Virus record (IMG/VR): IMGVR_UViG_2721755486_000001
Location: 32,001 to 96,000 of that record
Reading direction: 5' to 3' (one strand)
Length of the DNA: 64,000 nucleotides
Source: a virus
Taxonomy: Duplodnaviria > Caudoviricetes
Shown here: positions 9,588 through 62,436 of the stretch, piece by piece
How the letters are laid out: each line of letters opens with the position of its first letter
Position numbering within the stretch: position 1 is the first letter of the stretch
The notes under the pieces: model-generated
What the model was told of the DNA's origin: nothing
The model's database searches: none
The model's input: only the letters and a program-made list of their open reading frames with translations
Made by a program: the position numbers and the translations under genes

Positions 9588-10598
9588 ATGCAGCAGCCCA
9601 ACGCCCAGCGCGAAACGATCGTCGCGGATTCGCTCCCTCAACGCCTCGACGCCTACGACATGGCGCGGCTGCTGATCGAATGCGCCGAACGGCCGGCGAT
9701 CGGCATGCTGATGTTCTTCGCCGTGCCCATGGAAGCGCGTCTGGCCATGGTGGGCGCGAAGACCCCCGGGCAGGCCCAGGAGGTGCGGGACGAGTCGTTC
9801 AACACCGACATCTGGGTGTTGTCGACCGTCATGCGTGTGCTCGGCGAGCGGGAACGGCGTGGCCTGGGCGGCCCTGTCGGGGCGACGTTCACCCCGCTCG
9901 AGCTGAGCGCTCTGGTGGCGCACCTGAACGAGGTCGATGATCCGACGATCACGGCGTTCTTCCGGCGCGAGAACCTGAACGGTGCCCAGATCCTGAAGCG
10001 CCACGCTGACGCGTTGCGTGAGCTTCCGGAGGTCGAGCAGTTGATGCTCGCATCGCTCACCGCCGTCTGGCAGCGGACCGACAACCTGGACCTCGTGCGC
10101 GGGTTCCTCGACGAGTGCATCCAGGACGGCCCCGTCGCGGCCGCCATCGCAGCTCGACGGGCCGCAGGAGCGGGCGGGCGACGATCCACTGAAGGTGGAC
10201 CGATCGCCCAGCGTGAAGCGCTCACCCCGGTGGGCGCTTTGTCGTGCCGCAAAAAGTTGCCGGTTTTGCGCAAAAAGTTGCGGAACTTGCGCAACATCTT
10301 GCGGGTACGGCGCAACTTCTTGCCGAAGGCCGTGGCCCGGAGGGACCGGGGTTGGGCGGGGCGTGAGCCCCGTCTTTCCACCGTGCCAGGGCACGGCTAC
10401 GGGCCTCGCGACAGTCCGCGATCCCCGATGACATGCAGCGCTCCCGGCGCTGCTCGACCCCGAACGTCCAGGGCACCGCGGCATGCACCGCGGGGTGGTG
10501 CGTTCAACCGTGACGCCGTGTTTCCCGCATCCCCGTTTTCGATTCACCGCTGGGTGGCCCGCCCACTTCCTCGACGTGTAGCTCAACCGTGCCCCTGA
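9588..10598 (+). CDS. hypothetical protein; only the first ~200 codons look coding
   Basis: AGGAGG RBS and good codon bias to ~10190; the rest runs through regulatory repeats. Confidence 0.5.
   Translation: MQQPNAQRETIVADSLPQRLDAYDMARLLIECAERPAIGMLMFFAVPMEARLAMVGAKTPGQAQEVRDESFNTDIWVLSTVMRVLGERERRGLGGPVGATFTPLELSALVAHLNEVDDPTITAFFRRENLNGAQILKRHADALRELPEVEQLMLASLTAVWQRTDNLDLVRGFLDECIQDGPVAAAIAARRAAGAGGRRSTEGGPIAQREALTPVGALSCRKKLPVLRKKLRNLRNILRVRRNFLPKAVARRDRGWAGREPRLSTVPGHGYGPRDSPRSPMTCSAPGAARPRTSRAPRHAPRGGAFNRDAVFPASPFSIHRWVARPLPRRVAQPCP
10249..10323. repeat. four GCAA-N4-TTGC palindromes at 21-bp period
   Basis: Copies start at 10249, 10270, 10291 and 10312. Confidence 0.8.
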
Positions 10599-10800
10599 CG
10601 GGGGCAAGGCACCGCTGCGCTCGTTGTCCTCTCCCGTTCCCCTCGCTCCCTTCGGTCGGTCGGCGCGTGCGGCATCCGGCAACGGCCTGGCCCCCGGGGC
10701 AGGTCTCGCTTTCCCCACGACGAGGCGGCTCCACTGAGCAGTGAAACGAAACCCAACGGGGAGAGCAGGGAAATGGTCCACGGCGTCGAACACACCACCA
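10494..10800. promoter_or_regulatory. long imperfect hairpin, Frpo/ssi-like single-strand promoter candidate (copy 1)
   Basis: Nested complementary blocks GACGCCGTG/CACGGCGTC, TTTCCC/GGGAAA, TCCCCGTT/AACGGGGA, CCTCGACGTG/CACGACGAGG, GGGGGCAAGGC/GCCTGGCCCCC. Confidence 0.7.
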
Positions 10801-10898
10801 ACGGCAACGGCAACACCGCGGCGTTCCCCCGCACCCCCGAGGCTCACCACCGAGCAGGTAGCCGCACCACTCACACGACCACGAAGGAGAACAACAGC

Positions 10899-11297
10899 AT
10901 GGACGCGCAAGACATCATCAACGGCTTGGCCCGCTACACCGGCACGGAGAGCTATTTCTCCCTCGGTGCCATGTTCCGCAACGCGGTCTACACCGACGGC
11001 GTGCAGTTCCTCATCGAAAACGCCCAGTGCGCCTGGCTGGTCACCGATGCGATGGCCTGGGTCTCGCAGAAGGTGCCGGGGCAGAACTACGACGACGGGT
11101 TCATGACCGTTGAGCTGCACCCGAAGGAGGACAGAACCGCCGATCTGCTGATCACCGACGGCAACGGCACGACGCTCTACAGCCAGCACTACACCGCCCA
11201 CACGTTCCCGCTGCCGAAGGGGATCAAGTTGTACGCGGTCTGGGGCGAAACCTCGCGCGGCCCCTGTTGGATCTTGATGGTGACCAGCGAATATTGA
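10899..11297 (+). CDS. DUF6876-family protein
   Basis: TGTESY...YTDGVQFL...AWL...DGNG...FPL...SEY pattern; AAGGAG RBS. Confidence 0.75.
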   Translation: MDAQDIINGLARYTGTESYFSLGAMFRNAVYTDGVQFLIENAQCAWLVTDAMAWVSQKVPGQNYDDGFMTVELHPKEDRTADLLITDGNGTTLYSQHYTAHTFPLPKGIKLYAVWGETSRGPCWILMVTSEY

Positions 11298-11308
11298 TCC
11301 ACCCCACG

Positions 11309-11332
11309 CCCCGGACGCTACGGTTTCCGGGG
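11309..11332 (+). repeat. conserved intergenic hairpin (second copy at 12316-12339)
   Basis: CCCGGACGCTACGGTTTCCGGG is identical in both copies. Confidence 0.75.
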
Positions 11333-11359
11333 CTCCCGATCCCACGACCAAGGAACACC

Positions 11360-11719
11360 ATGAACCTCATCACCATCACCACGGGCGACCTGATCGGCCC
11401 CACGCTCGACTGGGCGGTGGCCAAGGCCATCAACGCCCCGTTCACCACCGGACCGTTTTCCACCGACTGGGCGCTGGGCGGCCCGATCCTCGAAATGCAC
11501 GGCGTCGGTTTCTTCCGCAACGGCAAGAGGGTGTACGCGAACGAGGCGAAGCGCTGGGAGGCGAACCGCATCGTGAACCTCGACGACGCGCCGATTCTGC
11601 GCCACGGCTACCGGGCCCTGGGCCCGACCCCGCTTGTCGCCGGCTTGCGTTGCCTCGTGCGCAGCAAGCTGGGCGAAACCGTGGCGGTGCCGGCGGACCT
11701 GATCAACACGGAGGCATGA
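11360..11719 (+). CDS. phage NinX/DUF2591-family protein
   Basis: LDWAVAKA...FSTDWALGGPILE...GPTPLVAGLRCLV-x-SKLG. Confidence 0.8.
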   Translation: MNLITITTGDLIGPTLDWAVAKAINAPFTTGPFSTDWALGGPILEMHGVGFFRNGKRVYANEAKRWEANRIVNLDDAPILRHGYRALGPTPLVAGLRCLVRSKLGETVAVPADLINTEA

Positions 11720-11720
11720 C

Positions 11721-12272
11721 ATGGCCAAATCGACCTTTCAGCGGCGCGGCATGATCGGAGGCGTGTTCGCGTGCGGCATCTGCGGCCGGCGGACGCGTCA
11801 CACCAACCAGGGCATGTCGCACCTGTGCCCCCAATGCGACGAGTGGACGGCTTCGGAAAATGGCATCAACGACGGCAACTACGCGGGGTGCCCGCCCGAG
11901 GACCTCGTGCAGGCGGAGGCGGCGATCCTCAAGCTCAAACGCGAGGCATGGAAGCGGGGCGGGGACGCCGCGAGCCTGGGGCTTACGCCCGACGGCACGC
12001 GCGACCTGCGCACCGAGATCAACGCCGTCACCATGGCCGCCGTCGTGCGCGGCTACCGCCTGGAAATCGCGGGCGGTGCGCTCCCGGGCGAGATAGCGCT
12101 GGTGGACGACCTGAACGGCGAGGCGGTGGAGGAACCGGACGAACCCTTGGCGGCCCTCGCCCAGCTCTACGCGCTGCTGGTGGACCTGCGCGAGGGTGTT
12201 ATCACCGCCCAGCAGTTCGACGACCTCGGCGGCAGCACGTGTCGCGAGATCCTCAAGCAGTCCCAGGCATGA
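11721..12272 (+). CDS. hypothetical protein with N-terminal zinc finger
   Basis: CGIC-x12-CPQC; GGAGG RBS. Confidence 0.7.
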   Translation: MAKSTFQRRGMIGGVFACGICGRRTRHTNQGMSHLCPQCDEWTASENGINDGNYAGCPPEDLVQAEAAILKLKREAWKRGGDAASLGLTPDGTRDLRTEINAVTMAAVVRGYRLEIAGGALPGEIALVDDLNGEAVEEPDEPLAALAQLYALLVDLREGVITAQQFDDLGGSTCREILKQSQA

Positions 12273-12361
12273 CCGGGGCCGGGGCGGTGGCCCCGCTACC
12301 ACGGTTGATCCCACGGCCCGGACGCTACGGTTTCCGGGCATGCCTCCCTCACATCTGGTAC

Positions 12362-12802
12362 ATGACCATGGAACGCTTCACCCACGTCACGACGCGCAAC
12401 AGCCCGACGAGCAAGACCTACCAGCAGCCCACGTACCGCGACCACCCGGCGGGGGCCGTGCCCATCACCGGCGAGTTCACCCTGACCGTCGACGAAGCGA
12501 TGTACATCCTCAGCGTGGCGGGCCAGGCCCGTCACCACCATTTCGACTGGGTGAAGCTCATGGACGCGCGCACGGTCTGGATCGGTTACGACCCGAGCCC
12601 GACGGGCGGGTTCACGGAGCGCCGCACGAAGACGGTGTACATGGACGCCGGGATCATGGTCTCCCCGGACAACTTCCACATCCAGGGGCGCGAGTCCAAC
12701 GACGGCCCGCTCCTCAAAACGATGCACATCCGGATGGACGACCTGGTGCGCGACTTCGCCCTGGTCCTGCGCGATCCGGACGCGAAGCTCAAGGCCGCCT
12801 GA
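12362..12802 (+). CDS. hypothetical protein
   Basis: Good codon bias from MTMERF; follows the second hairpin copy. Confidence 0.65.
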   Translation: MTMERFTHVTTRNSPTSKTYQQPTYRDHPAGAVPITGEFTLTVDEAMYILSVAGQARHHHFDWVKLMDARTVWIGYDPSPTGGFTERRTKTVYMDAGIMVSPDNFHIQGRESNDGPLLKTMHIRMDDLVRDFALVLRDPDAKLKAA

Positions 12803-13140
12803 CCTGGGCACGGGGCACGTCCCCGTGCGCGGGCACCGCGGCGGCTGTCCAGCGCCCACCTGCGCGGTGGGCGTGGTCCTGGCGTGCCCTGGCACCCTTC
12901 GGGCAACACCTCGCCGGAGGCGAAACGGCAGGTAACCCCGCCCGGCAGGCCTGCGGCACACGGCCGGGCCCCACGGCATCGAGACCGAGCGTTCCTCCGC
13001 TCGGTGGTCCGTTCGGATACCGCGTCCTTCCGCGATCCCCGATGAACGCAGCGCGTGCACCTGGCGCAGCGCGGCCCCGTACAACCGGACCCCTGGACGC
13101 CTGGGCGTCCTGAGCACGCCGCGCTCGCGCACGTCGTGCC

Positions 13141-13443
13141 GCCGGTTTTCAACCGTGATGCCGTGGCTCCGCCAGGTCGTCAGGCACGTGGGTCCGCTCT
13201 TGTCGGTCCGCCTTCTCCTTCGACGTGTAGCTCAGCCGTGTCCCTGTTGGGGCAAGGATTCGCGCGCAGCGCTCGTCGTCCTCTCCCGGTCCTTCCCGCC
13301 TGGTGGTCGGTCAGGCGTGCGGCATCCGGCGACGTCCTGGCCCCGGGCCCCGTCCGATCTCTTTCCACGCCGAGGCGGCTCCGAAGAGCAGACATCCACC
13401 AGACGATGAGGCGAACCATGAACCACGGCATCGAAAACCCGGC
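13141..13443. promoter_or_regulatory. long imperfect hairpin, Frpo/ssi-like (copy 2)
   Basis: Homologous to copy 1, with the compensatory change GATGCCGTG/CACGGCATC. Confidence 0.7.
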
Positions 13444-14023
13444 GAACAACAACGGCAACACCGCGCAGTTCCTCGCCCCCGAGGCTTCCAAAGAGCAGGG
13501 GTACAGCAACACCGGCGACTACTTCGCCCAGCCCTACAACACCTGCGTGGCAGGCTTCTACTTCTCGGACTACGAGGAGTACCAGGCAAAGGCTGCAGCG
13601 CTGCGCGACCCGTTCGGTTCCCCGGTGGAGGAGTTCGAGATTCAGGCGATCGACCTGGACCGCGCGCAAAGCGAGCTTTTCGACGCACTCAAAATCGACC
13701 AATCGACGCTCGAACGCTGGTTCGACGACGTGGTCGACCTCGACGAGCACGAGCTGGCGGTGGTGTTCTTTCTGGTGGACAACAGCGGGTACGACCTCGA
13801 CAGCGCGATGGACAAGAAGGACGATGTCTCCCTGTATCACGGCAACCTGCTGGACGCGGCCACGGAACTGTTCGACGACTGCTACGGCAGCTCGATCCCG
13901 GACAACCTTAAGTCTTACATTGATTACGAAGCCTTCGCCCGTGACTGCCGTTGCGGCGGCGACATGGTGGAGTTCGATTTCGGGGGCTCGACCTACACCT
14001 GCACGTCGGCGAACCACTGCTGA
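13418..14023 (+). CDS. ardA: antirestriction protein ArdA
   Basis: Highly acidic; FAQPY...GFYF...VEEFEIQ...YIDYEAFARD...GDMVEF. Confidence 0.85.
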   Translation: MNHGIENPANNNGNTAQFLAPEASKEQGYSNTGDYFAQPYNTCVAGFYFSDYEEYQAKAAALRDPFGSPVEEFEIQAIDLDRAQSELFDALKIDQSTLERWFDDVVDLDEHELAVVFFLVDNSGYDLDSAMDKKDDVSLYHGNLLDAATELFDDCYGSSIPDNLKSYIDYEAFARDCRCGGDMVEFDFGGSTYTCTSANHC

Positions 14024-14277
14024 CCACGTGCCCGGAGCCTCGCCCTCGGGCGATGCGCTTTGGGTCGGCGGGCAGTGCCAGGGCACCCCTCACCGCCCGG
14101 GTATCCAGCGGGACCCCACGCCGAAGGCTCAGGGCCCGGAGGGCGGGGCGGGCCCGTGGCCCGTTTCTCCGGGGTGATGGGATCACCCCATGACCGACGA
14201 CCGTCTGACCAGCTTGCCCGCGGGCCTGGACCGCTGGCACACTCCGATAACCGGCACCATAAGAAGGAAAGAAATAC

Positions 14278-18833: not shown

Positions 18834-20975
18834 ATGACTACAAACGAAGCTTTTTCCCGGGTGTTGATCGACGCGCTTCTCGCGGACCAGGGTTGGAAGA
18901 CCACCGACCCGACTCAGGTGCGGTATGAAGTGGTGATGCCGGACGGCACGCGTGCCGACTACGTTCTATGCGACCGGCATGGGCGATCGCTGGCAGTGAT
19001 CGAAGCCAAGCGCTTCACGACGAACCCGGCGGACGCGGCGGAGCAGGCCAAGCGCTATGCCGAGCATCTGAACGTCCCGTACGTCTTTTTGACCAACGGC
19101 GCCGAGCTTCTGTTTTGGGAGTGGCGGGCTCAAGCCCACCCACATCCGGTCAAAACGTTCTTCAAGCAGGACGACCTTGAACGCCGGTTCGCAAGTCTGA
19201 CGGTCCGTAAGGACCTGCTGTCTGTGCCGATCGACCTGAAGATAGTCGAGCGGGAATACCAGACCAAGGGCATCGACAAGCTCTGCAAGGAAATGCAGCA
19301 GGGCAGGCGCAAGTTGCTGGTGGAGATGGCCACCGGCACGGGCAAGACGCGCACGGCCGCAGCATTGATCAAACGGCTTTTCGAGGCCAACGCTGTGACC
19401 CGTGTGCTGTTCTTGGTGGACCGTATCCCGCTCGCGAAGCAGACCGAGGATGCTTTCGCCGAGCATTTGCCCGACTACCCGGCCTACGTGCTGCGCGCAG
19501 GACGTCGGTTCCAGGACGAGAAGCGGATCACCGTGACCACGTTGCAGAGCATGGTCAACATCTATTCGGAATACTCTTCCGGCTACTTCGACCTGATCAT
19601 ATCGGACGAGTGCCACCGCTCGATCTACGGCCAATGGTCCGGGGTTCTCAAATACTTCGACGGGGTGCAGATCGGACTGACCGCGACGCCCTGCGTCGCC
19701 AACCTGGACGATGCGCAGGCGGACGCGGACGACAAGCAGTTCGTGCGCGACACACTGCGATTCTTCGAGGTCGATGAGCCGACCTTTTCGTACAAGCTTA
19801 AAGACGCCATTTCGGAAGGCTGGCTCGTTCCATATCAAGTGTACGCAGCGCAGACCGTCAAGACGGCGGCGGAAGGCGGGTTCGAAGTCTACCGCAAAGA
19901 CCTCGATTGGTCGGCCATGGACGACGAGACGTCCGCTGAGTTCGAGCAACTGTTTGCCAACCGGGATCCGATCGTAATCGACCCGGCCGCGCTCGAGCGA
20001 AAGTTCACCATCCCGGAGCGCAACCGTGCCATCGTCCGAGAGTTCCGAGACGTGTTGCAGAACGGGTTCACGGACCAAAAGGGCGTGCTCCGGATGCCGC
20101 TGATCGGCAAGACCATCGTTTTCGCGGTCAACAAGAAGCACGCCGAGACGCTGGCCAATCTGTTCGACACCGAGTTCGCCGACAAGAAGCCGTCGCCGGA
20201 CGTGCGCTACGCCGACTACGTGGTGTCAGGCGCCGGGCCGGACGATACCGTTGACGCGATGGCGAAGATCAAGCGGTTCAAGAAGGAGCAGTTTCCTCAG
20301 ATCCTCGTGTCGGTCAACATGCTCGACACGGGTTTCGATTGCCCGGACGTCGTGAACCTGGTGTTTGCGCGTTTCACGCGCTCCGCCATCCTGTACCAGC
20401 AGATGCGCGGCCGTGGCACTCGCAAAGCCAAAAACAAACCAGTTTTCACCATCTTCGACTTCGTTGGCGTCGTGGCCTACCACGGTGACGAGGATCCGGT
20501 CGGAGAGGGCGGCATCGTGGTGTCGAAGACCCCTCGAACAAAGAAGTACGAACCGACACGCCTGCTGTCACTCGACGTGGACGACCACATCGACCCGACC
20601 ACGCGCGAATGGATCACCATGGACGAGGACGGGAACATGCAGTTCCCCGAGGCGTCTGCTCAGCGCGCCGAAGAACTGGGCGCACGGTTCGAAGCCTGGC
20701 GGTTGCAGCAGACCGTGAGCCCGGAGCAAGATCGCTGGCTGCGTATCCTCGGCGCGCAGATTCGCGCAAACGCCGACGATTTGACGGAGTTGTTTCCCGA
20801 GCACTTCGCCTACTTCCACACCTTTTCGCAGATGGGTGGCCTGAAAGAGGCCGAGCGCGTCTTCGGTTCGAGTGAGGCCGTACAGAGTCTGATCGGTTCA
20901 CTTAACGCCGCGCTTTTCCCGATCGACGATTCGGGCGCCCCCGACGCGCCAGCAGATCAGCCGGTCGCGCACTAA
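18834..20975 (+). CDS. hsdR: Type I restriction subunit R (compact EcoAI/EcoEI-like)
   Basis: ADYVL...IEAK nuclease motif, MATGTGKT, DECH, GLTATP, MLDTGFD, QMRGRGTR. Confidence 0.9.
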   Translation: MTTNEAFSRVLIDALLADQGWKTTDPTQVRYEVVMPDGTRADYVLCDRHGRSLAVIEAKRFTTNPADAAEQAKRYAEHLNVPYVFLTNGAELLFWEWRAQAHPHPVKTFFKQDDLERRFASLTVRKDLLSVPIDLKIVEREYQTKGIDKLCKEMQQGRRKLLVEMATGTGKTRTAAALIKRLFEANAVTRVLFLVDRIPLAKQTEDAFAEHLPDYPAYVLRAGRRFQDEKRITVTTLQSMVNIYSEYSSGYFDLIISDECHRSIYGQWSGVLKYFDGVQIGLTATPCVANLDDAQADADDKQFVRDTLRFFEVDEPTFSYKLKDAISEGWLVPYQVYAAQTVKTAAEGGFEVYRKDLDWSAMDDETSAEFEQLFANRDPIVIDPAALERKFTIPERNRAIVREFRDVLQNGFTDQKGVLRMPLIGKTIVFAVNKKHAETLANLFDTEFADKKPSPDVRYADYVVSGAGPDDTVDAMAKIKRFKKEQFPQILVSVNMLDTGFDCPDVVNLVFARFTRSAILYQQMRGRGTRKAKNKPVFTIFDFVGVVAYHGDEDPVGEGGIVVSKTPRTKKYEPTRLLSLDVDDHIDPTTREWITMDEDGNMQFPEASAQRAEELGARFEAWRLQQTVSPEQDRWLRILGAQIRANADDLTELFPEHFAYFHTFSQMGGLKEAERVFGSSEAVQSLIGSLNAALFPIDDSGAPDAPADQPVAH

Positions 20976-21002
20976 CATTCATAAATACGCAAGGTAGCAC
21001 CT

Positions 21003-22625
21003 ATGCCATTAACGCCGAACATGCGGCGGTCAATCGACCAGATTCGTGATTACCTCTTTGGAGGCGGCTATCCCGATCCAGTGTCGAACGCTGAACAACT
21101 GTCTTTCCTCTTCTTCTTCTACCTGATCGAAGGTATCGACGCCGAGAACACCATGAAGGCGCGGGTGCTGAAACATCCGTACCAAAGCATTTTCGTCGGT
21201 GACTGGGCGGTGAAGAACCCGCTCAACGCCGACCAGGGAAAGAACACCATTCCTCGTGATCGGTTCAAATGGTCGGTGTGGGCCAAGGCGATGTCTGGCG
21301 AGGCACTGGTGCGGTTCGTCCGTGACGAAGTTTTCCCGTTTTTTGCCGAGATGGGTGAAAGTGCTGCGCACAACTTCATGGACGGCGCGCGACTGAACAT
21401 CACGGATCCCACCGTGCTCACGCAGGTCGTAAACCTGGTCGATGGGCTGCGGCTCGATGCGGCAGACGCCGACACGAAAGGCGACCTCTTCGAACACGTC
21501 CTTCGTCAGATCAAGCAGGCAGGCGAACTCGGACAGTTCCGCACGCCACGACACATCATCCGCGCTATCACGGAGATCGTTGATCCGAAGATCGGCGAGA
21601 CGGTCTACGATCCCGCGGCTGGCACCGCTGGCTTCTTGGTCGCGGCATACAACCATATTCGCGTGGCGAACTCGTCGCCCAACGCGGTCGAGACGGTCGA
21701 GGTGGACGGCAAGGACCAACGGCGGGGCGCTGGCGACCGGCTCTCGATCGCCCAGAACACGGCCCTGCAAAACGCGACGTTCTTCGGGAACGACGTAGAC
21801 CCGAAAATGGTTCACTTGGCGACGATGAACCTGATTTTGCGTGGGCTGCCGAACGTTCGAGTTCGCCTGCGCAACGTGCTGACCACCACCATTGAGCGGG
21901 AGCAGAAGGAAACGCTTGGCCTGCCGGTGGATGGCTACCACGTGATTCTCGCCAATCCCCCGTTTGCGGGCCGGATCGACAAAGACCGGGTTGTCGAGGA
22001 TGTCAAGGTCGGGAACAGCACAGCCACAGAACTGCTGTTCCTCAAATACATGATCGATAGCCTTCGTCCAGGCGGCAGATGTGGCGTTATCGTCCCAGAG
22101 GGTGTGCTGTTTGGCACCACCGGAGCACATCTCGAACTGAGACGACAACTGCTTGAGAACAACCAGGTTGAAGCGGTCTTGTCCCTCCCGGGTGGGGTCT
22201 TTCAGCCTTATTCGGTCGTTAAGACGTCCGTCCTGTTTTTCCGGAAAGGCGGGCGGACAAGCAATGTCCTGTTCCTGCACGCGGACAACGACGGCTACAA
22301 AAGGGACGCGAATCACGATTTGCCTATCGAGGCCGACGATTTGCCTGCAGTTGTGCAAGGTTTTCGTGATCGCGAAGAAAGGCTCGCCGCATGGCAGCGG
22401 CGAGACGCCAGCACTGAATGGACGGAGAAATGGTGGTTTGCCGACGAGGCAGCGATTCGCGGCAACAGCCTACGGCTTTCAGCCGGTCAATATCGTCCTC
22501 GAAGCCAATCGATGGTCGAACACCGTAGTTCCATAGAACTCCTCGACGAGTTGGCGGCGCTCGAACGGGAAATCGTGGAAGAGGTTGAAGCGTTGAGGTT
22601 GATAGTGCGGAACGGCGAACAATGA
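21003..22625 (+). CDS. hsdM: Type I N6-adenine methyltransferase subunit M
   Basis: GQFRTP, DPAAGTAGF, NPPF, VPEGVLF. Confidence 0.93.
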   Translation: MPLTPNMRRSIDQIRDYLFGGGYPDPVSNAEQLSFLFFFYLIEGIDAENTMKARVLKHPYQSIFVGDWAVKNPLNADQGKNTIPRDRFKWSVWAKAMSGEALVRFVRDEVFPFFAEMGESAAHNFMDGARLNITDPTVLTQVVNLVDGLRLDAADADTKGDLFEHVLRQIKQAGELGQFRTPRHIIRAITEIVDPKIGETVYDPAAGTAGFLVAAYNHIRVANSSPNAVETVEVDGKDQRRGAGDRLSIAQNTALQNATFFGNDVDPKMVHLATMNLILRGLPNVRVRLRNVLTTTIEREQKETLGLPVDGYHVILANPPFAGRIDKDRVVEDVKVGNSTATELLFLKYMIDSLRPGGRCGVIVPEGVLFGTTGAHLELRRQLLENNQVEAVLSLPGGVFQPYSVVKTSVLFFRKGGRTSNVLFLHADNDGYKRDANHDLPIEADDLPAVVQGFRDREERLAAWQRRDASTEWTEKWWFADEAAIRGNSLRLSAGQYRPRSQSMVEHRSSIELLDELAALEREIVEEVEALRLIVRNGEQ

Positions 22626-23797
22626 GCAGCATGGTGAGAATACGCGATGTCGTGTCCCAGGATACAGGGACGAGGAATCCCACGCGCCAGCCGGCCGAGA
22701 GCTTCGAATATGTGGACGTTGCTGCGATCAACAACGAAAGCAAGACCATCGAAAGAGCGAAGACACTGTTGGGTGCGGACGCACCCAGCCGAGCGCGACG
22801 CCTAATCCAGGCCAACGACGTTCTGGTCTCAACGGTCAGACCAAACTTGAACGCGGTTGCTCTCGTCCCAGAACGATTGGGCGGGCAGGTGGCGAGTACA
22901 GGTTTCTGCGTGCTTCGCGCAAACGGTCAGGTCCTGCCGCAATATCTGTACTACTTCACTCGTTCTCACGGATTTGTTGAAAACCTGTCGCGCCTTGTTG
23001 CTGGGGCCCTGTATCCAGCAGTCACGGATGGGCAGGTATTGGATCAAGAGATACCGATGGTCTCTCCCGAGAAGCAGAGGGATGTGGTGGAGGCGCTGGC
23101 TGCGGCCGAAAGCATCGTCAGATTGTGCACCGAGGCGTCTGCAAAAACAGCGGAGCTTCTTCCTGTCATGTTCGTCGAAATGTACGGAGATCCGGCGACA
23201 AACCCGAAGGGCTGGCCGTTGCGGCAGGTATCGGATTTCGTCGAAAAGTTCGAGGGCGGGAAGAATCTTCTGGCGGGATCTGAGAACGGGTCACCGTTCC
23301 GTATCTTGAAGGTGAGCGCGGTCACTTCGGGGCGCTACCTGGAAGAGGAAAGCAAACCAACACCGGATGGATACCAGCCTCCCGACGCACACCTGGTGCG
23401 TGTCGGCGACATGCTTTTCTCGCGCGCAAACACAGAGCAACTCGTAGGCGCCACGGCTCTTGTCGAGAGCACGAACGGGCAAACGCTGCTGCCCGACAAA
23501 CTCTGGCGTATCGTGTGGTCCGAGCCGGCGGAGCCCGCGTATATGCACGCCCTGTTCCAATCGCGCTACGTACGTCAAGAACTGAGTCGGATCTCCACGG
23601 GTACAAGTTCATCAATGCGGAACATTTCTCAGGGGCGCCTTTTCGAACTGAGTTTGCCGGTGGCGCCGTACGACGAGCAGAGAGTGTTCGGCGAACGTGC
23701 GACAACGATCAGGTCGATTCAAAGTCAGCGCGCTGCCGCGCTGGAAAAAGCGCAGCAGACCTTTGATGCACTAATGGCAGCGGCCTTTCCGTACTAG
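22622..23797 (+). CDS. hsdS: Type I specificity subunit S
   Basis: Two TRDs joined by FVEMYGDPATNPKGW; ATGA overlap with hsdM. Confidence 0.9.
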   Translation: MSSMVRIRDVVSQDTGTRNPTRQPAESFEYVDVAAINNESKTIERAKTLLGADAPSRARRLIQANDVLVSTVRPNLNAVALVPERLGGQVASTGFCVLRANGQVLPQYLYYFTRSHGFVENLSRLVAGALYPAVTDGQVLDQEIPMVSPEKQRDVVEALAAAESIVRLCTEASAKTAELLPVMFVEMYGDPATNPKGWPLRQVSDFVEKFEGGKNLLAGSENGSPFRILKVSAVTSGRYLEEESKPTPDGYQPPDAHLVRVGDMLFSRANTEQLVGATALVESTNGQTLLPDKLWRIVWSEPAEPAYMHALFQSRYVRQELSRISTGTSSSMRNISQGRLFELSLPVAPYDEQRVFGERATTIRSIQSQRAAALEKAQQTFDALMAAAFPY

Positions 23798-34835: not shown

Positions 34836-34838
34836 GGC

Positions 34839-41711: not shown

Positions 41712-41864
41712 GGCTCGGGTCCCTCGCGTTGGTCTTGTCGCTGGGCGCCACGCCCAGGCAGGCACCGATTGAACCACGTCGCATCGTGCGGGCACCAGCG
41801 GAAAAGTGTTGCTCTCGGTCGCTGCGCGAACCACCCCCGGGGCTGGAGGCCCGGGCGGGGACAA

Positions 41865-41923
41865 CCGGTGCTGACGCCGATGAGGCCGCAGGCGGGGTTC
41901 GTGCGCAGGAGCCCCCGGCTCCG
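41865..41923 (+). repeat. structured intergenic repeat, copy A (B at 51671-51732, C at 54063-54123)
   Basis: GTGCTGACGCCGATGRGGCC-GNA-GGC...GGAGC-loop-GCTCC. Confidence 0.8.
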
Positions 41924-42006
41924 AGGTCTTGCACGGGACACCGTCGACCCGGACGGAAGAGGGGTGCCGTTGCACCCCTTAGCCCCGCGCCCGGCGAACC
42001 GCTGGG

Positions 42007-46608: not shown

Positions 46609-46720
46609 TGAGTCGTCCACGGTGCTGGGCGACCCCGCCTCACGACTCACCCAGAGTGGCCCCCCTCGCGATACTGAACCCATCGACACCACACACCCAC
46701 GGAGCAACCCCATGACCACC
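46609..46720 (+). repeat. inverted-repeat site (3 of 5) within a ~78-bp promoter/RBS/start duplication shared with 47816-47928
   Basis: TGAGTCGT-N25-ACGACTCA-N20-GATACT...CACCCACGGAGCAACCCCATGACCACC. Confidence 0.8.
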
Positions 46721-47788
46721 ACGAACATCGCAGCAATCCGTCGCCCGATCACGTCCATCGACCAGTTGATGAAGGAGGCCGATGCCCTGATCCAGCGCTA
46801 CTTCAAGAACGAAATCTCGCTTGAAAAGGCACGCTGCGTGCTGGACAAAACGTTGATGTCGGCGGCGCTGGAAACGATCGGGGGTCCCGACGCCGCCACC
46901 GCTGTTCTGGAGGCGGCCGTGGCGCTAGACCACCCGGCGTTCGTGAGGGAACTGCTCGATGCCGGTGCGAATCCCGACGGTCTCAAGTTCGACGGGTACG
47001 GCCCGGAAAGCAATGGCTGCCCCCTCGCTACTGCGATCTTCGACATCTATGAAATCAGCAGCGCGTTCATCATCAACATGCTGCTGATCGAAGGGGCAAC
47101 GCCGGACCGTCGCCGCACCGGGGACACCCTTCTGCACGCGCTCGCACGCGGCGGAGATCTGCTGGGCGCCGACCCGGACCGCGCGCAATGCTTCCATTGG
47201 ATGGTCGCTGCCGGTTGGGTGGTGAACGCTCGCAACGACGACGGCGCCACCCCTCTGATCGAAGCGGCCAATCTGGGGAACCACTACGCGGTCGCGGCAC
47301 TGATCGCGTTGGGCGCCGACGTCCACGCCGTCGACGTCTATGGGTACAGCGCCCTCGATATGGCACTGAAGAGCATCGATCAGAACGGGGTCGCGGCCTG
47401 CGTTGAAGCGCTGGTCGGCGCTGGGGCGAAACCGTGCAAGCCGTGCGGCGACGATTACTACGAAGAACGGGAACGCCTGCGCGGGGAGTATGACCAGATC
47501 ACCCAGCGTATCAAGACCAACGGCGATCTCACCGAGCTGGTCCAGATCCTCGACAAGGGGCAACACCTCGAATCCCGGGTGGACAACGAGGGCGCCACGC
47601 CCCTGATCGTCGCGGCCAAGCATGGCAACCACAAGGTTTTGACCTTCCTGATGGGGTGTGGGGCAAACATCAACGCGGTGGATCACGACGGCCTGAACGC
47701 TCTGGACCATGCGGTGGGTGCGGCACGCCAGTGCCGCACGGAGCTGCTGCTCAGCGTGGCGATGGCCACGCAGCCGGTAGGTGCGTAG
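46712..47788 (+). CDS. ankyrin-repeat protein
   Basis: GDTLLHALA, GATPLIEAA...LGADVHAVD, GATPLIVAA...GANINAVD. Confidence 0.9.
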   Translation: MTTTNIAAIRRPITSIDQLMKEADALIQRYFKNEISLEKARCVLDKTLMSAALETIGGPDAATAVLEAAVALDHPAFVRELLDAGANPDGLKFDGYGPESNGCPLATAIFDIYEISSAFIINMLLIEGATPDRRRTGDTLLHALARGGDLLGADPDRAQCFHWMVAAGWVVNARNDDGATPLIEAANLGNHYAVAALIALGADVHAVDVYGYSALDMALKSIDQNGVAACVEALVGAGAKPCKPCGDDYYEERERLRGEYDQITQRIKTNGDLTELVQILDKGQHLESRVDNEGATPLIVAAKHGNHKVLTFLMGCGANINAVDHDGLNALDHAVGAARQCRTELLLSVAMATQPVGA

Positions 47789-56268: not shown

Positions 56269-56680
56269 GCAGCGTCCTTGATGTTTTGGTTTTGTAAGGT
56301 GGGAGCCTAGCATAGGTGTCCCGTGCGCGCGACCGCGCTTGGCCCTCTCGGGCATCCCGGAAAGCGCCATGGGGGCGGAGAAGGACCCGTGGCGACTTCT
56401 GACCTGTCACCGGAACTCCACGCGATCGCAGACGCAGAAGCCTCCGCACCCGTCGAAGCGCGCGCCCGGCGTCGCCTGTAACCGCCGGAGGGGAAGCACC
56501 TCACCCGCAAGCGATGGCCCGGAGGGCGAGTGGGGCGCGAGCCCCGTTTCTCCTGTGCCCTGGCACGATTAGGTCGTTCTTCGGAATCCCGTCCCGGACG
56601 GTTGACGAGCGACCAAGACCCGCTAGGTTGTACCCATAAGCCGCGCGTCCGCATCGGCCATCCAGATGAGTCGCCCCACC

Positions 56681-57178
56681 ATGACCGACACCACCAGCAC
56701 CGCCCCCTGCTACCCGCTCGACGACTGGGCCTTGGAAGCGGCCATCAACGCGGGCAACACCGACTGGGTAGCCCAGCTCGTCGCCGCCGGCGCAGATCTG
56801 ACGCGCCCACGGTCCGACACGTACGGGCGAGGTGGCGTGACCCCGCTGGGCCTGGCGGTCCACTTCGGGAGCCCCGACATCGTGGAGCTGCTGCTCGACG
56901 CGGGCGCTCCGGTGAACCAGGTCGCGGTGCGGTGGGGCGGTACGGCGCTGCACATGGCCGTGGTGGAGAGCGTGGGCGATGGCGTGGTGGAAATGCTGCT
57001 CAAGGCCGGGGCCGACCCACTGCTGACCGACGGGAAGGGGCGGCGCCCGCTCGACTACCTGGGCTGGGCCGTGGCCGAGCACCTGTCCGACGGCGACAAG
57101 GACCTGGTGCGCATCGCCACCCGGCTCGCGATCAACACCGCGAAGTTGAACGGGCAGAAACGCCCGAAGCGTCACTGA
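56681..57178 (+). CDS. ankyrin-repeat protein
   Basis: GVTPLGLAV, GGTALHMAV, AGADP...GRRPLD; operator at 56555 and TTGACG-N16-TAGGTT (56602) upstream. Confidence 0.88.
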   Translation: MTDTTSTAPCYPLDDWALEAAINAGNTDWVAQLVAAGADLTRPRSDTYGRGGVTPLGLAVHFGSPDIVELLLDAGAPVNQVAVRWGGTALHMAVVESVGDGVVEMLLKAGADPLLTDGKGRRPLDYLGWAVAEHLSDGDKDLVRIATRLAINTAKLNGQKRPKRH

Positions 57179-57197
57179 CTTGGAGGGAGGAGACCTC

Positions 57198-57815: not shown

Positions 57816-57944
57816 CCCGGATCGTGCTGCGTTTGACGGGCGAGCGGTTACTTGCAAGTCTGTAACGCTCCACCCGGACCCGTGCCAGGGCACGGCAAGC
57901 ACCACCGCTTCCGCGCCTGGGTCTGACCGCACCAGGGACCCACC

Positions 57945-58424
57945 ATGCGCAACACCACCGGCGGCGATCGGCCGCAAACCTCGACCCCGCGAGCGGGGAT
58001 TCGCACGGCCCATTTCTGGGCCGCCCTCTACGCGGGGCTGATGCTCATCACCCTGATGGTCTGCGCGCTCGGCGCGAGAACGTTCTTCGCCCGGTACGAC
58101 GACAATGCGCTGGTCATCGGCCTGGCGGTGCTGGCCTGCACGCTGTTGCTCGACCACGCGGACCGAAGGCTCCGCGAGCAGGGCCGTCGACTGCACCGCG
58201 TGAACGCCTACATCACCGGCTTCTCGAGCCCGATGCTCATGGGCGTTCTGGCATCTTGGCTCGTCGCCCCCCAGGCCATACACCTGGCCGCGGCGGGCTG
58301 GTCGGACAACCTGCACCTGCTGGTCGCCAACCTCGCGGTGCTCTGGACCGGCGTGACGGTCGTGCGGCTGTTGCAGGACCCGCACCCGGACCTGCGGGGC
58401 GGGTTCTTCCGGACGGGACGTTAG
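57945..58424 (+). CDS. membrane protein (about four TM helices)
   Basis: Hydrophobic segments; operator at 57882 upstream. Confidence 0.65.
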   Translation: MRNTTGGDRPQTSTPRAGIRTAHFWAALYAGLMLITLMVCALGARTFFARYDDNALVIGLAVLACTLLLDHADRRLREQGRRLHRVNAYITGFSSPMLMGVLASWLVAPQAIHLAAAGWSDNLHLLVANLAVLWTGVTVVRLLQDPHPDLRGGFFRTGR

Positions 58425-60271
58425 GCCTCGGCGGAGGCCGCGTCGTCCATGTTCGGGGCGGCGACTGGGGTGACCGGGCCCTTCGCCAGCAGCGGCGGGG
58501 CGCTGTCGTAGATCTTCGTGGTGATCCCGTCGAGCTTCTTCTCCAGCGCTTCGAGCACCAGGTCCAGACGCGCCTCGATGAACCGCACCAGCGCGTCCGG
58601 TGGCAGTTCCGTCAGGGTCTCCTGCCATTCCACGATTTCCGTGGGCACCAGATGCGATTTCAGCACGCCAAGGAACGCCTCGCGGGCCCAGGTCGAAAGG
58701 CCCACGTACGACCCGAGGTAGTCCAACGGGTTCTTGTTGGAGATTTGCAGGTTCGTGAGCTGCGGCAGGTAGGCGATGTTCAGCAGGCTGTCCGACAGGT
58801 CCTTGTGGTCCAGGTTCGACTTCGCCACAAAATCGCTCGGGAAGATGTGGTGGAGGTTCGGCCGGTCGGTCAGCGTGTAGTAGACGGCGTTGAGCACCGG
58901 CCCGTGGCCTTGGCCCCAGTCGCGCGGATGGTGGTGGGCGTAGAACGCCAGCAGGGCACGCGCACGACCACCACGCGTCGAGTATTGCGTCAGGCGCAGT
59001 GCGTTGCGGTCCAGCGTGAATCCCTTGCTGAACACCTTCGAGCCGTCACCGTCCCTGAGCTGATCGACGTGCTCCCAGAGGCCCGTCGTGTTGCTCAGCA
59101 GGTCGCTCTGGTGGAAGGATGAGAACCAGAAATAGCGCTGGGCCAGATCGAGGCTCGGCGCCGGGTTGTCGAAGAAGTAGCCCGTCAACGTCATGTAGAC
59201 GTACCGGTACGGGATCAGGTTCGGCCCATTCAGGTCGAGCGTGTTGTCCAGGAAGCCCAAGGTCTTGCGGATCGCCGCCTGGGCGCCTTCCCACACGGCC
59301 TCGATGTCCTCGGCTTTCAGCTCGTTGAGGTACTTGTCGGTGATGTTCAGCACGGTGGCGCGACCGTGCACCTTCTGCTGGTGGATGCGTACGCACACCG
59401 CCACCATCTGCAAAAAGGTCCAGTCGTCCAGCAGGGCGTAGTTCGACGTGCCCAGGCTGGTCCGGAAACCCTGGATCAGATCGCGCAGGTAGAACCCGGT
59501 GATGCCCGCCTCGGGGTTCGCCACGCGGTAGGTCTTCGCCACCACGATGTCGAAAATGTTGAGGGGGCGCCCGGCCTGGTTCACCCGTTCGAAGATCTGG
59601 CAGACCTCCGAGACCTCGATCCCGTGCAGTTCGATGAACGAAAGGCGGTAGTTCGCCAGGATGCTTTGCATCTGGCGCAGGCGCTGACGCTCGGGGGCTT
59701 CGTAGGGGAGGTTCGACAGCTTGCTGTCGAGCTTGCCGAAGTCGAACACGATGTCGCGCAGGGAGACGATCAACCCCTGGGTGTACCGCATCTGGCGGCC
59801 CTTGTTGCGGATCAGGGCGCCGTCCTTGTCGTCGATCTCGTCCCAGAACAGGAAGCGTTCGCGGTAGCTCTCGTCGTCCGTCGGCCCTTTGAGGGCGATG
59901 GACAGGTCGACGTAGACGCTGGGGTCGGTGGATTGCCCCTCGATCGTGCCGCCATAGATCGACGTGTAGAGCGAGGTCGTGCGCTGCTGGCCGTCCAGGA
60001 TGTAGCGGTACTCGGCGGCGTTGAGCGGCTCGGTCAGGACGTGACCGCCGATGCTGCGGTGGCTATGGAGCGGCAGCGGGGTACGCCAAACCAGGATGCT
60101 GCCCAACGGGTAGAACTTGTACACGCTGTCCCAGAGCAGCTTGACGTTGCCGCGCTCCCACACGACGTCGCGCTGGAACGTCGGAATCTGGTAGGACCCG
60201 GCCTGGATGTTGCCGAGATACGTCTGGATGCCGAAGTCAACCGGTTTGATCCGGTCTTGGTAGTTGCTCAT
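58421..60271 (-). CDS. GmrSD-like Type IV restriction enzyme (DUF262 plus C-terminal HNH/DUF1524-like domain)
   Basis: IPTFQRDVVW, LDGQQR, IFERVN; HHIFP...LNIAYL...N. Confidence 0.85.
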   Translation of the reverse strand: MSNYQDRIKPVDFGIQTYLGNIQAGSYQIPTFQRDVVWERGNVKLLWDSVYKFYPLGSILVWRTPLPLHSHRSIGGHVLTEPLNAAEYRYILDGQQRTTSLYTSIYGGTIEGQSTDPSVYVDLSIALKGPTDDESYRERFLFWDEIDDKDGALIRNKGRQMRYTQGLIVSLRDIVFDFGKLDSKLSNLPYEAPERQRLRQMQSILANYRLSFIELHGIEVSEVCQIFERVNQAGRPLNIFDIVVAKTYRVANPEAGITGFYLRDLIQGFRTSLGTSNYALLDDWTFLQMVAVCVRIHQQKVHGRATVLNITDKYLNELKAEDIEAVWEGAQAAIRKTLGFLDNTLDLNGPNLIPYRYVYMTLTGYFFDNPAPSLDLAQRYFWFSSFHQSDLLSNTTGLWEHVDQLRDGDGSKVFSKGFTLDRNALRLTQYSTRGGRARALLAFYAHHHPRDWGQGHGPVLNAVYYTLTDRPNLHHIFPSDFVAKSNLDHKDLSDSLLNIAYLPQLTNLQISNKNPLDYLGSYVGLSTWAREAFLGVLKSHLVPTEIVEWQETLTELPPDALVRFIEARLDLVLEALEKKLDGITTKIYDSAPPLLAKGPVTPVAAPNMDDAASAEA

Positions 60272-60391
60272 TTGGTCCCTCGTGCGAGCCTGTTTTTCAG
60301 GGCGATTTTCGATCGCTACTATACCAGTGGCGCTCCCCGGAAAGGCTCACCATCGCTCCCGAAAGGGCTCACCGTTGGCGTGGCGGAGGCA

Positions 60392-61111
60392 TCACGGTTG
60401 TGGTTTCGCCTGCTCCCCCAGCAGATCCAGGAGGCGGTTGGAAGTCTCAATCAGTTCGGGCAGTTTGTCGGCTGCCCGCGACGGGATAAAGCCGCCGTAC
60501 TGTTTTCGAATCGCAAGGATCAGATCGGCTGCGACCAGGCCGGCCTGGCCACATTCCCAGAGGTCGACCTTCAACCAATGGTCGTCGTCAAAATCGAAAT
60601 AGCTCGTATAAATGGCGGCATTTTCACCGCCAACGAACTCGAAGTTGTGGAAACTGTTGTAGACGTTTGCGTGGGCGGTTTGCTCGTTGATCAGATCCTT
60701 CATCCGTTTGATCTCGTCGGATTGCGCCTTGAAATGCTGACCGAGCCAGGCGTAGGCAGCTTTCGAAGCCTTTTGCGGGTCGTGCTTCTTGCCGTCCGTC
60801 GTATCGAAATAGTTCGTTGTGTCGACGTGGACCAGCGAATACGCCGCGTGTACGGTCGATTCGAGAAAGTAGCGCAAGACCATTTTGGCCTGAATCCGGT
60901 GCTGCCTCACCAGCGACATCAGGCACAGCGTGTGACCCTTCTTCATCTGCGAAAGAAAGCGGATGAAGATGTCGCAATCCTTGGTCGGCCACGTCATGAT
61001 GTTCGAGAGCAGCAGGCTTACATCACGAGCGTTGGTGAAGAAATCGCCATAACGCTCTTCGGCACCAAGGACCATCTGATGCTCGATGTGGGAGAACTCC
61101 TCGATGCTCAC
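60392..61111 (-). CDS. lower-GC hypothetical protein (possibly DUF5677/HEPN-related)
   Basis: 239 aa, helical; LRYFLE...TAHAN; co-oriented upstream of GmrSD. Confidence 0.55.
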   Translation of the reverse strand: MSIEEFSHIEHQMVLGAEERYGDFFTNARDVSLLLSNIMTWPTKDCDIFIRFLSQMKKGHTLCLMSLVRQHRIQAKMVLRYFLESTVHAAYSLVHVDTTNYFDTTDGKKHDPQKASKAAYAWLGQHFKAQSDEIKRMKDLINEQTAHANVYNSFHNFEFVGGENAAIYTSYFDFDDDHWLKVDLWECGQAGLVAADLILAIRKQYGGFIPSRAADKLPELIETSNRLLDLLGEQAKPQP

Positions 61112-61443
61112 GGTGGGTGCCTCTCTCTAGTTGAAGTCGTTGACCGATAACCCGGGCCGAGCCGGTCAACGACGACTATACATTGGCCACACGGGGTGCC
61201 CACCCTCGACCACAGCACAGCCGCCCCTTCGCAAGAACCGTAGGTCTTGCCCAGGCGGCACGGTAGGACAGCGCGCGGCCCTTGCTCGCCAACCGGCTGA
61301 TGGACGGCGTGGACAACGCGCCGTCGCGGTGAAACGGGCAGGGCGCCGTCGGTCCCACCTAAATCACCGCCTGCTGAGTCGACCTGCATAGCAAAGCGGG
61401 GCATCGGCCCCGCTTTCGCAGTCCTGCGTGGCCAAGGCCACGA

Positions 61444-61950
61444 TCAGCCGGCGCGCGCCCGGGACCGCTTCGCGTAGTTTTCCGCCCACTCGGCGCGCAT
61501 TTGTCGCACGGCCGCCATCGCCGCGATCTTGCACTGCAGCTTCTCCTCCGGCGTCAACCCTCCAATGTGCAGCGCGGTGTCGGACACGAGATCCTGCCGG
61601 CCCAGGCTGATCATCTTCTCCTCGATCGCCTCTTGCACAACCATGCGCTCGAGCGCCTGGGGAGGCTGGCTCATCCTGATGGCGACGTACGTGAACAGGC
61701 GGTAGGCGGCACCGCCCGCGTAGAGGCCCCACCACGCGGCCAGTACGGTGACCAGCACCGCACTCACCGAACCCGGCACGGGCGGCGAGAACAGCGCGAC
61801 GGACGTGGTGACGAGGGCGATGATGCGCGAGATCGGCCCGGCGATCTGCGTGACCGGGTAGGCCCTGCTCAGGAAGAACAGATTGACGAAAAACAGCCAG
61901 CCGACGATCAGCAGGCCGGCGTCGAGGTACATGCGAAAGGTCCAGTCCAT
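61444..61950 (-). CDS. membrane protein
   Basis: Three TM segments; GGAGGAG RBS. Confidence 0.7.
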   Translation of the reverse strand: MDWTFRMYLDAGLLIVGWLFFVNLFFLSRAYPVTQIAGPISRIIALVTTSVALFSPPVPGSVSAVLVTVLAAWWGLYAGGAAYRLFTYVAIRMSQPPQALERMVVQEAIEEKMISLGRQDLVSDTALHIGGLTPEEKLQCKIAAMAAVRQMRAEWAENYAKRSRARAG

Positions 61951-62164
61951 GGGGCTCCTCCAGAGGGTGGCCCCAGGCAGGGGCCGGTGCCCTCAACCAA
62001 GCAGATCCCTGGCAGATGTCAAGCTGTGCCCAGGCACACCTGCACCCCGTCCGGGCACTCCGCGCCCGTGAGGGGTTGTCACCCCGACACCGTTTGATCC
62101 CTCCACCCAGGGTGCTGAGCACCTGAACGATCGCGCACGTACACCGTGCGCTCGAACCCCCACG

Positions 62165-62436
62165 TGCGTGCAGGGCTCCCCCGTTGTGCGCCGATCCATC
62201 CTCGTCGTGAGGTGCTTTCGAACCCGTCGGTTAAGCGACGCCTGGCACAGGGCCACCCTTGATGCGCAATGGTCCGTGAACCCCGTCCTCACCCGATCCC
62301 TTGCGGGCGTGCGGCCTCCGGGCGGGCCATTGCGCCGGGTGTCCCCGTGCTGCTTCAGGCGCACCGACGGCTCCGAAAAGCACCCACTTCACGACGAGGG
62401 AAACACCATGATCAGCGCACAACAGCCCAGCACGCA
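62165..62436. promoter_or_regulatory. long imperfect hairpin, Frpo/ssi-like (copy 3)
   Basis: CCTCGTCGTGA/TCACGACGAGG, GGTGCTTT/AAAGCACC, CCGTCGGT/ACCGACGG, GCGCAATGG/CCATTGCGC; loop shares GTCCTC...GCGTGCGGC-N-TCCGG with copies 1 and 2. Confidence 0.7.

Follow-up and report, generated by a model that had tools for sequence, protein, structure and literature searches.

Single-stranded DNA (ssDNA) promoters explain how anti-defence genes are expressed from incoming conjugative DNA before it becomes double-stranded, and their experimental validation is so far limited to the IncF and IncI plasmids of enterobacteria. Among their three known classes, class 2 includes ssp2 of plasmid F, located upstream of ardB/klcA, and the ardA and klcA promoters of the IncI1 plasmid pESBL (PMC12672017; bioRxiv 10.64898/2026.01.09.698686; PMC13478746); the start sites of this class were mapped by 5′ rapid amplification of cDNA ends (5′ RACE), and the class was described as conserved in F (Wen et al., Nucleic Acids Research [NAR] 2025, PMC12672017). 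Class 1 comprises Frpo and ssi1-3, from F and ColIb-P9. Integrative elements are named in the text of one paper as a setting where such an analysis is still possible (NAR 2026, PMC13478746). We found no paper linking ssDNA promoters with Burkholderia, a word that is absent from the papers listed for such promoters and from the main text of Samuel et al. (2024); the supplements of Wen et al. (2025) and Samuel et al. (2024) may already include relatives. Here we analysed a stretch of 64,000 nt (the window), comprising positions 32,001 to 96,000 of the IMG/VR virus record IMGVR_UViG_2721755486_000001 and corresponding to C1:1905597-1969596 of a genome whose three contigs add up to 7.95 Mb; the window contains three long hairpins immediately preceding an ArdA-like and two other genes. 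Our results indicate that these hairpins probably represent a branch of the class 2 (ssp2) ssDNA promoter family that is carried by a betaproteobacterial island and has a distinct architecture; this would now place one of the three known classes in chromosomal islands of betaproteobacteria.

An initial annotation of the window had proposed that the intervals 10494-10800 (copy 1), 13141-13443 (copy 2) and 62165-62436 (copy 3) each form one long interrupted stem, and folding them as ssDNA, with DNA parameters, bore this out on both strands. The predicted energies, with z-scores against shuffled sequences, were -84.4 kcal/mol (z -5.67) for the + strand and -90.9 (z -5.41) for the - strand of copy 1, -68.3 (z -1.89) and -86.0 (z -4.67) for copy 2, and -87.8 (z -8.63) and -100.1 kcal/mol (z -10.18) for copy 3; the - strand, which is the template of the downstream gene, is the presumptive folded and functional strand in all of them. 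Exact matches to the apical motifs, GTCCTCNCCCGNTCC and GCGTGCGGCNTCCGG, are confined in the window to the three hairpins; searches allowing up to two mismatches gave 7 and 8 matches, of which 3 of each are the exact hairpin copies. Both motifs and the variable apex between them define the apical core, which occupies positions 10626-10679 (- strand) in copy 1. Copies 1 and 2 do differ in sequence by the compensatory change from C/G to T/A, with GACGCCGTG/CACGGCGTC in the former and GATGCCGTG/CACGGCATC in the latter. The CCTCG..CGTG/CACG..CGAGG helix that had been considered as retained in copy 3 also exists, but alignments place it nearer to the stem base, and not at the position homologous to that of the look-alike helix of copies 1 and 2.

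The three hairpins have the same orientation and precede + strand genes whose assignment agreed with their Pfam matches: a DUF6876 gene after copy 1 (10773-11297; PF21781, E 3.2e-24), an ArdA-like anti-restriction gene after copy 2 (13418-14023, with an alternative ATG at 13406; PF07275, E 9e-10 to 2e-9) and a gene for an LPD29-domain protein after copy 3 (62408-63088; PF18847, E 4.5e-10 to 8e-10). The stem of copy 1 encloses the first ATG of the DUF6876 gene, as annotated, and also its ribosome site, and this gene contains an internal Shine-Dalgarno (SD) sequence plus ATG at around 10886-10902. The translations of the genes behind copies 1 and 2 start with similar N-termini, also in agreement with the annotation, and the gene behind copy 3 likewise has an N-terminal leader.

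A covariance model built on the gene-complementary strand from 18 copies showed that the hairpin family is real, although larger than the three members first recognized: the genome contains seven copies, at C1 1.916, 1.919, 1.968, 1.978, 2.010, 2.012 and 2.013 Mb, always with the gene on the + strand. Those from the window score 145.8 bits (copy 1, C1:1916156-1916340), 150.2 bits (copy 2) and 122.4 bits (copy 3), and the four extra copies lie 8-44 kb to the right of the window. The exact core motif has six occurrences in the genome, all of them on the + strand. Around 35 further copies were found in Burkholderiaceae, with model matches in 6 of 77 other genomes of the genus and in 8 of 150 other genomes from a family-wide sample, so that, including this genome, 8 of 29 genera are represented; genomes with exact copies of both apical motifs bear the names Burkholderia and Paraburkholderia. 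Conversely, there was no model match at E <= 1e-4 in those genomes searched from a sample of 150 from other families of the class, and Rfam 15 gave no matches at gathering score in the window, nor at E <= 1 in six copy-bearing loci.

The base pairing is backed by covariation. In the model-based alignment of 42 distinct copies, which is fitted to the model and somewhat favours the structure, 91.9% of the cells are in standard pairs and 21 of the 26 consensus pairs have changed on both sides; these values were not reached by any of 500 shuffles, and sliding the partners by 1-3 columns left only 27-48% paired. Additionally, compensations in the basal arms are visible by hand, since GGCGGCTCC is opposed to GGTCCGCC in most copies and GGCGAAAAC to CTTTCGCC in the own6 and L006 copies, and they agree with the structure derived from the model. 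With plain MAFFT alignments as input, RNAalifold missed the basal half of the stem, whose arms cannot be aligned by sequence, and returned just the apical half; we therefore relied on folds of individual sequences and on the covariance model.

Both strands of a stem have identical Watson-Crick stacks, whereas a G·T wobble on one strand is an A·C mismatch on the other; the strand that was selected to fold can thus be read from the wobbles. Folding both strands, as had been suggested for these elements, revealed that the template strand of the downstream genes is more stable in 18 of 18 copies with DNA parameters and in 42 of 42 model matches extended to the full hairpin. These 42 copies contain 259 G·T pairs on the template strand versus 92 on the gene strand, and the 26 consensus pairs comprise 882 Watson-Crick cells, 74 G·T and 13 A·C. 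The strand difference was -4.8 kcal/mol for copy 1, -18.0 for copy 2 and -12.5 for copy 3, whereas 244 windows of 300 nt from this region gave a background of -0.5 +/- 5.2 kcal/mol. Copies 2 and 3 and the whole family thus show a clear bias, which copy 1 by itself does not. The four ssDNA-promoter hairpins in the leading region of plasmid F, which are intergenic and lie upstream of a methylase gene, an antirestriction gene, ssb and the gene that precedes DUF932, served as a positive control. In every one of them the transferred strand has the better fold, by 5-11 kcal/mol; among the F coding-region windows listed, the gene strand folds better in many. A template-strand bias was likewise found in 10 of 10 copies from Yersinia, Pseudomonas and F. 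The better fold of the template strand and its excess of G·T pairs argue against an mRNA leader and are as expected of an element acting on the transferred strand. This comparison of G·T with A·C is a simple computational way to separate ssDNA elements from RNA leaders, and could be used to find further classes.

The family is connected by sequence to a validated ssDNA promoter. Searching PLSDB with the core of copy 1 retrieved 11 plasmids, from Yersinia (6), Burkholderia glumae (3) and Pseudomonas aeruginosa (2), with 82% identity over 83 nt (E 1.6e-15) to a Yersinia plasmid locus (L050:12001-12082). The IncI-like Yersinia ruckeri plasmid p17Y0412.1 carries five model copies (search without filters) with a single polarity, each around 80-110 nt before a + strand gene (hypothetical, DUF1281, hypothetical, ardA and DUF932); beyond these lie ParB-like, psiB and psiA genes and finally mobA-traI, all in one orientation, and these copies thus sit in a textbook leading region. 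All five match the Burkholderiaceae model or half-profiles, and a P. aeruginosa plasmid contains three model copies, also with the same polarity. In turn, the hairpin upstream of the Yersinia ardA gene aligns to both arms of a hairpin from plasmid F (L049:4421-4720; E 1.4e-8 and 3e-4), and a half-profile made from the Burkholderiaceae copies alone has its best F match inside this same hairpin (E 0.014). We identify the F hairpin as ssp2 because of the texts of two papers and of the position of the published primers: the ssp2 primers, whose sequences are printed in bioRxiv 10.64898/2026.01.09.698686, map immediately to its left, and ssp2 is stated to lie upstream of ardB (NAR 2026, PMC13478746). 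Relatives of the Yersinia ardA-type hairpin occur in 4165 PLSDB records, mostly from Klebsiella. Conversely, the F Frpo1 and Frpo2 hairpins (L049:6191-6490 and 11561-11860) gave no match with the model at E <= 1 or with the half-profiles (nhmmer) at E <= 10. The initial annotation had considered the three hairpins as Frpo-like; an ssDNA promoter is indeed supported by the strand bias, the co-orientation with the relaxase gene described below, the location in the Yersinia leading region and the link to ssp2, but their kin is class 2 and not the class 1 of Frpo and ssi.

The hairpins share with class 2 a GC-rich structure of around 300 nt directly upstream of anti-restriction genes, a greater stability on the transferred (template) strand, a common apical core with TTGC and T-A elements, and the presence of several copies per element. 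However, they reside in a Burkholderiaceae chromosomal island with a MOBF relaxase, instead of an enterobacterial plasmid, and the seven island copies are spread over around 100 kb, whereas those of class 2 lie within a leading region of 13 kb. In the stem, the apex spans 8-25 nt in island-type copies versus around 87-89 nt in F ssp2 and in the Yersinia ardA copy, and most island-type copies have their extra spacer nucleotides on the non-template arm, whereas in F, judging from its sequence, they are on the template arm. Moreover, the island-type stem spans the SD and the start codon, whereas that of F stops before the SD, around 35 nt before the ATG, and, unlike those of class 2, the island-type genes have a shared in-frame leader that contains a duplicate of a stem segment. 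With Frpo and ssi1-3 the hairpins share the principle, the size class, the position before establishment genes and the strand bias, but no sequence relationship was detected between our model or half-profiles and the F Frpo hairpins. The primase-dependent initiation site of phage G4 is similarly a structured element working on ssDNA, but sites of this type are not coupled to a start codon; the model had no match at the G4 complementary-strand origin, with a best score in all of G4 of 7 bits (E 0.45).

Plasmid F contains another weak but specific match to the apical core, at L049:661-826 (around 52.66-52.83 kb; 18 bits, E 0.003-0.016; half-profile E 0.039). This segment forms a hairpin on the transferred strand (z -3.5) directly before an SD and an ATG, and the open reading frame (ORF) opening after it begins with MPNWCSNRMYFSG and is absent from the PLSDB gene table. 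It may represent one more class 2-like element, situated where the leading region of F has its far end; the texts of the ssDNA-promoter papers describe F with four ssDNA-promoter operons.

The arrangement of conserved positions in the stem is compatible with a promoter that is assembled by folding. On the arm that would serve as non-template strand, a TTG is conserved in 38-39 of 42 copies and, further toward the stem base, a T-A pair of positions is conserved as T in 34 and A in 39 of 42 copies; the latter sits in a small asymmetric internal loop, partly unpaired, followed by N-N-C-G-T. Measured along the template arm, TTG and T-A are 17-19 nt apart in 33 of 36 copies; along the other arm, 18 nt separate them in 13 copies and 21-24 nt in the others. 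From this constancy on the template arm, the length of the helix must be constant and close to a spacer of 15-17 bp, while the linear spacer of the duplex is 4-7 nt too long in most copies. In the enterobacterial relatives, the hexamers TAAGAT, TACAGT, TACGTT and TAACGT each occur 15 nt after TTGCNN; the -10-like sequence of the Burkholderiaceae copies, TACACGT, has one extra base. TTG and T-A are thus a plausible -35/-10 pair, as far as can be judged from their sequence and spacing. Reading the conserved blocks by eye as sigma-54 or extracytoplasmic function (ECF)-type motifs did not produce a fit, and these options were dropped. The most conserved section of the element, from Burkholderia to Yersinia, is formed by the two motifs of around 15 nt that are opposed as an unpaired apical bubble, upstream of the -35 position; a rather speculative reading is that a conserved host factor, such as an RNA polymerase subunit or SSB, recognizes the bubble as single strands. 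The parts that the covariation-backed consensus of the class shows to be invariant across bacterial classes are the apical bubble, the TTG, the T-A and the helical spacing.

A pair of genes for a TraD-like coupling protein (T4CP) and a MOBF (TrwC) relaxase, which is the only TrwC relaxase in the whole genome, is located to the right of the window on the + strand, followed by a parA gene and then by an integrase gene. All seven hairpins are co-oriented with the relaxase and T4CP genes, at around 86, 83, 34 and 24 kb upstream and, for the rest, 4-8 kb downstream of the relaxase gene. Likewise, hairpin genes and the TrwC relaxase gene were co-oriented in 6 of the 7 genomes having both clearly on one contig, a count that leaves out two genomes of uncertain contig identity and two without a TrwC relaxase, and syntenic arrangements exist in Burkholderia anthina and Paraburkholderia sp. 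BL21I4N1. The leading genes, oriT and the relaxase genes of F are all co-oriented, as are those of the Yersinia plasmid; by this rule, the - strand would be the one transferred from the island, in agreement with the fold bias. Together, homology, polarity and strand bias thus point to promoter activity of the hairpins.

Several observations weigh against this interpretation. F ssp2 itself is matched weakly by the profile (E 0.014), and the homology is a chain through Yersinia. As had been annotated, no canonical -35/-10 pair is evident, because a simple sigma-70 consensus scan of positions 10300-13700 found no site on either strand; nevertheless, the same scan is also empty in the validated F ssp2, class 2 having no strong sigma-70 consensus by this criterion, and an empty scan is therefore not evidence against promoter function. 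The -10-like element, T-A-N-N-C-G-T, has its T one position late, and this second hexamer of the pair lacks a T at position 6. The strand difference of copy 1 lies within the background (-4.8 versus a standard deviation of 5.2 kcal/mol), with nearly equal z-scores on both strands, and shuffled - strands fold around 5 kcal/mol better than shuffled + strands, indicating that part of the strand bias is due to base composition. Relative to the relaxase gene, the copies extend from around 86 kb upstream to 8 kb downstream, and hence not all of them can be leading, and in one genome (G005) the hairpin genes are opposite to the sole TrwC relaxase gene of the contig. Additionally, oriT and nic were not found in the island, so that, in spite of the co-orientation of the relaxase gene with all seven copies, the transferred strand is deduced indirectly. 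Lastly, no VirB4 gene (PF03135) was found in the genome, which has only a sub-cut-off AAA_10 match on contig 3; transfer of the island may therefore depend on a helper element.

Taking the hairpins as class 2 promoters, we predict the following sequence of events, which extends to the transcript, its start site, the sigma factor that is used and the silencing of read-through RNA. Upon conjugative transfer of the island, the - strand, which serves the relaxase gene and every hairpin-linked gene as template, would enter the recipient as ssDNA, and around 300 nt of it would snap into the long imperfect stem, rebuilding a duplex promoter. The TTG and the partly unpaired T-A of the non-template arm would then lie, as -35-like and -10-like elements, at a near-canonical helical distance, allowing the host RNA polymerase to start inside the stem and to exit from its base into the anti-restriction or establishment gene before synthesis of the complementary strand. 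Once the DNA is double-stranded, the promoter geometry would be lost, with a linear spacer that is too long in most copies, and any read-through RNA containing both arms would fold over the ribosome site and the start codon, so that the genes fall silent.

Some properties of the 5′ ends of the genes are in line with the last of these steps. In 32 of 40 copies, at least 6 of the 10 nt of the SD region pair with the far arm, and the ATG is often bulged, with at least 2 nt paired in 16 of 40. The RNA with both arms of the hairpin has a predicted energy of -158.6 kcal/mol (z -6.0), while for an RNA that begins within the right arm the structure does not exceed that of its shuffles (z +1.2); in this folding model, read-through transcripts would be translationally closed and those initiated in the stem would be open. 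Among 30 downstream ORFs scanned there were 5 with DUF6876, 3 with LPD29, 1 with ArdA and 1 with a ParB-like domain, and in all ten of these the domain is in frame with the first ATG. The shared in-frame N-terminal leader consists of a Thr/Ser/Asn-rich stretch followed by a motif such as GVPPAPPEAHQRA, often with an internal SD and ATG.

The leader coding region also contains a duplication of part of the stem. A right-arm segment that pairs with the left arm, R1 (10721-10741 in copy 1, + strand), was delimited from the ladder of pairs in the template-strand fold and from its comparison with R2, and the predicted transcription start is nearby. R2 is a near-copy of R1, of 20-35 nt, situated around 105 nt downstream, at 10838-10857 (+ strand), 13476-13494 and around 62449-62468 in the window and also present in all related loci. 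Both segments co-vary, with a mean score of 12.1 within copies versus 9.1 +/- 1.9 between copies; their own partner ranked first in 13 of 27 copies, among them copy 1 (score 12), and was among the top two in 19 of 27. Copies differ in the frame in which the upstream part of R2 is read, which points to a constraint on the nucleic acid, and R2 might pair with the left arm as an alternative to R1 or be left over from a duplication of the cassette. One public DNA run contains the entire window and may be its source; in other such runs, we observed that assembled contigs from related strains terminate or are joined at 10806-10857, in the leader and R2 region, and at 13265-13332, in the apical core, as expected if both segments are multi-copy repeats there too. 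A more elaborate and rather speculative extension is that the Burkholderiaceae version is a portable two-state expression cassette, which would fire as ssDNA and, in the duplex state, produce a read-through mRNA hiding its own ribosome site, with a leader fused in frame to the following gene and with R2 pairing alternatively with the left arm to provide a second start or a switch.

Other roles have to be weighed for the hairpins. They could be mainly structural on the entering strand, either as priming sites for complementary-strand synthesis or as roadblocks that delay it, which we consider improbable as their principal function. The template-strand folds fit this explanation equally well, the island encodes its own UvrD-like helicase and topoisomerase and, as stated in the text of bioRxiv 10.64898/2026.01.09.698686, F ssp2 stalls complementary-strand synthesis at the stem end, this roadblock is resolved by the UvrD of the recipient, and Frpo transcripts can prime DNA synthesis. 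However, 18 of 18 copies have the ATG 91-112 nt behind the core motif, and such a fixed distance to the start codon and constant orientation would be needless for priming or stalling; neither is there similarity to the primase-dependent origin of G4. Moreover, a structural role does not exclude promoter function, because ssp2 does both.

The hairpin might instead operate as the 5′ leader of an mRNA, hiding the ribosome site and the start codon until triggered, as in translational control or attenuation. The very stable fold of the + strand RNA and the frequent pairing of the SD to the far arm would suit this regulation, and RNA-library contigs from a related strain cross hairpin 1, although they are unstranded, with a depth of 3-16 and possible DNA carry-over; contigs from the two RNA libraries of this related organism lack strand or end information and are hence uninformative on expression. 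Nevertheless, we regard an mRNA leader as still less probable than a structural element, since the wobbles favour the other strand both in whole hairpins and in the consensus pairs, the gene strand is the less stable one in every one of the 42 copies, no Rfam family matches and the enterobacterial relatives are proven ssDNA promoters. Finally, it is very improbable that the - strand is transcribed to a structured antisense RNA of around 300 nt that covers and represses the 5′ end of each anti-restriction gene, for although such an RNA would show the same strand bias, and the conserved segment R2 is where its promoter would sit, there is no promoter-like site on the - strand in 10300-13700, the sole - strand terminator-like site in this region (13464-13452) is on the promoter side of hairpin 2 and not at the RNA end, a near-perfect stem of more than 100 bp is, to our knowledge, unlike known antisense regulators, and the homologous hairpins of F and IncI1 work as promoters on ssDNA.

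The window has a GC content of 65%, and a scan of it and of the surrounding 240 kb found no tRNA and, therefore, no tRNA-marked island end. A topoisomerase III-like gene (7326-9494) is located directly upstream of hairpin copy 1, and the - strand carries a gene for a UvrD-family helicase with a C-terminal topoisomerase-type zinc ribbon (28054-30891) and an umuDC pair (33555-35288); by analogy with the role of the recipient UvrD at F ssp2, the island-borne UvrD may be relevant to the hairpins. Stretches of around 0.9-1 kb without a convincing gene precede copies 1 (9495-10493) and 2 (12273-13140), with a strong predicted folding of -82 to -93 kcal/mol per 300 nt and a common block of 25 nt ending in TGA (10407-10431 and 13021-13045), and may hold small genes or more structured elements. 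The long ORFs upstream of these two copies (9588-10598 and 12196-13113) are unrelated to each other, have no Pfam match and are probably not genes.

Defence genes are densely interspersed among the hairpin-linked anti-defence genes (18834-23797, 35518-37368, 40866-44529 and 58421-60271), and include type I restriction-modification genes (R, M and S), a SIR2-like gene, an Eco57I-type methylase gene with a NucS-like nuclease neighbour and a GmrSD-type nuclease gene. Past the last hairpin gene (L018:4794-10139, equivalent to C1:2014390-2019735) there is a PAAR/VRR-NUC gene pair with a TsiV immunity gene, a SRAP gene and, beside a helix-turn-helix (HTH) gene, a reverse transcriptase fused to a trypsin-like protease. 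The + strand also encodes several ankyrin-repeat proteins, in the window (46622-47788 and 56666-57178) and at L016:4675-7400, an unusual content for a bacterial mobile element.

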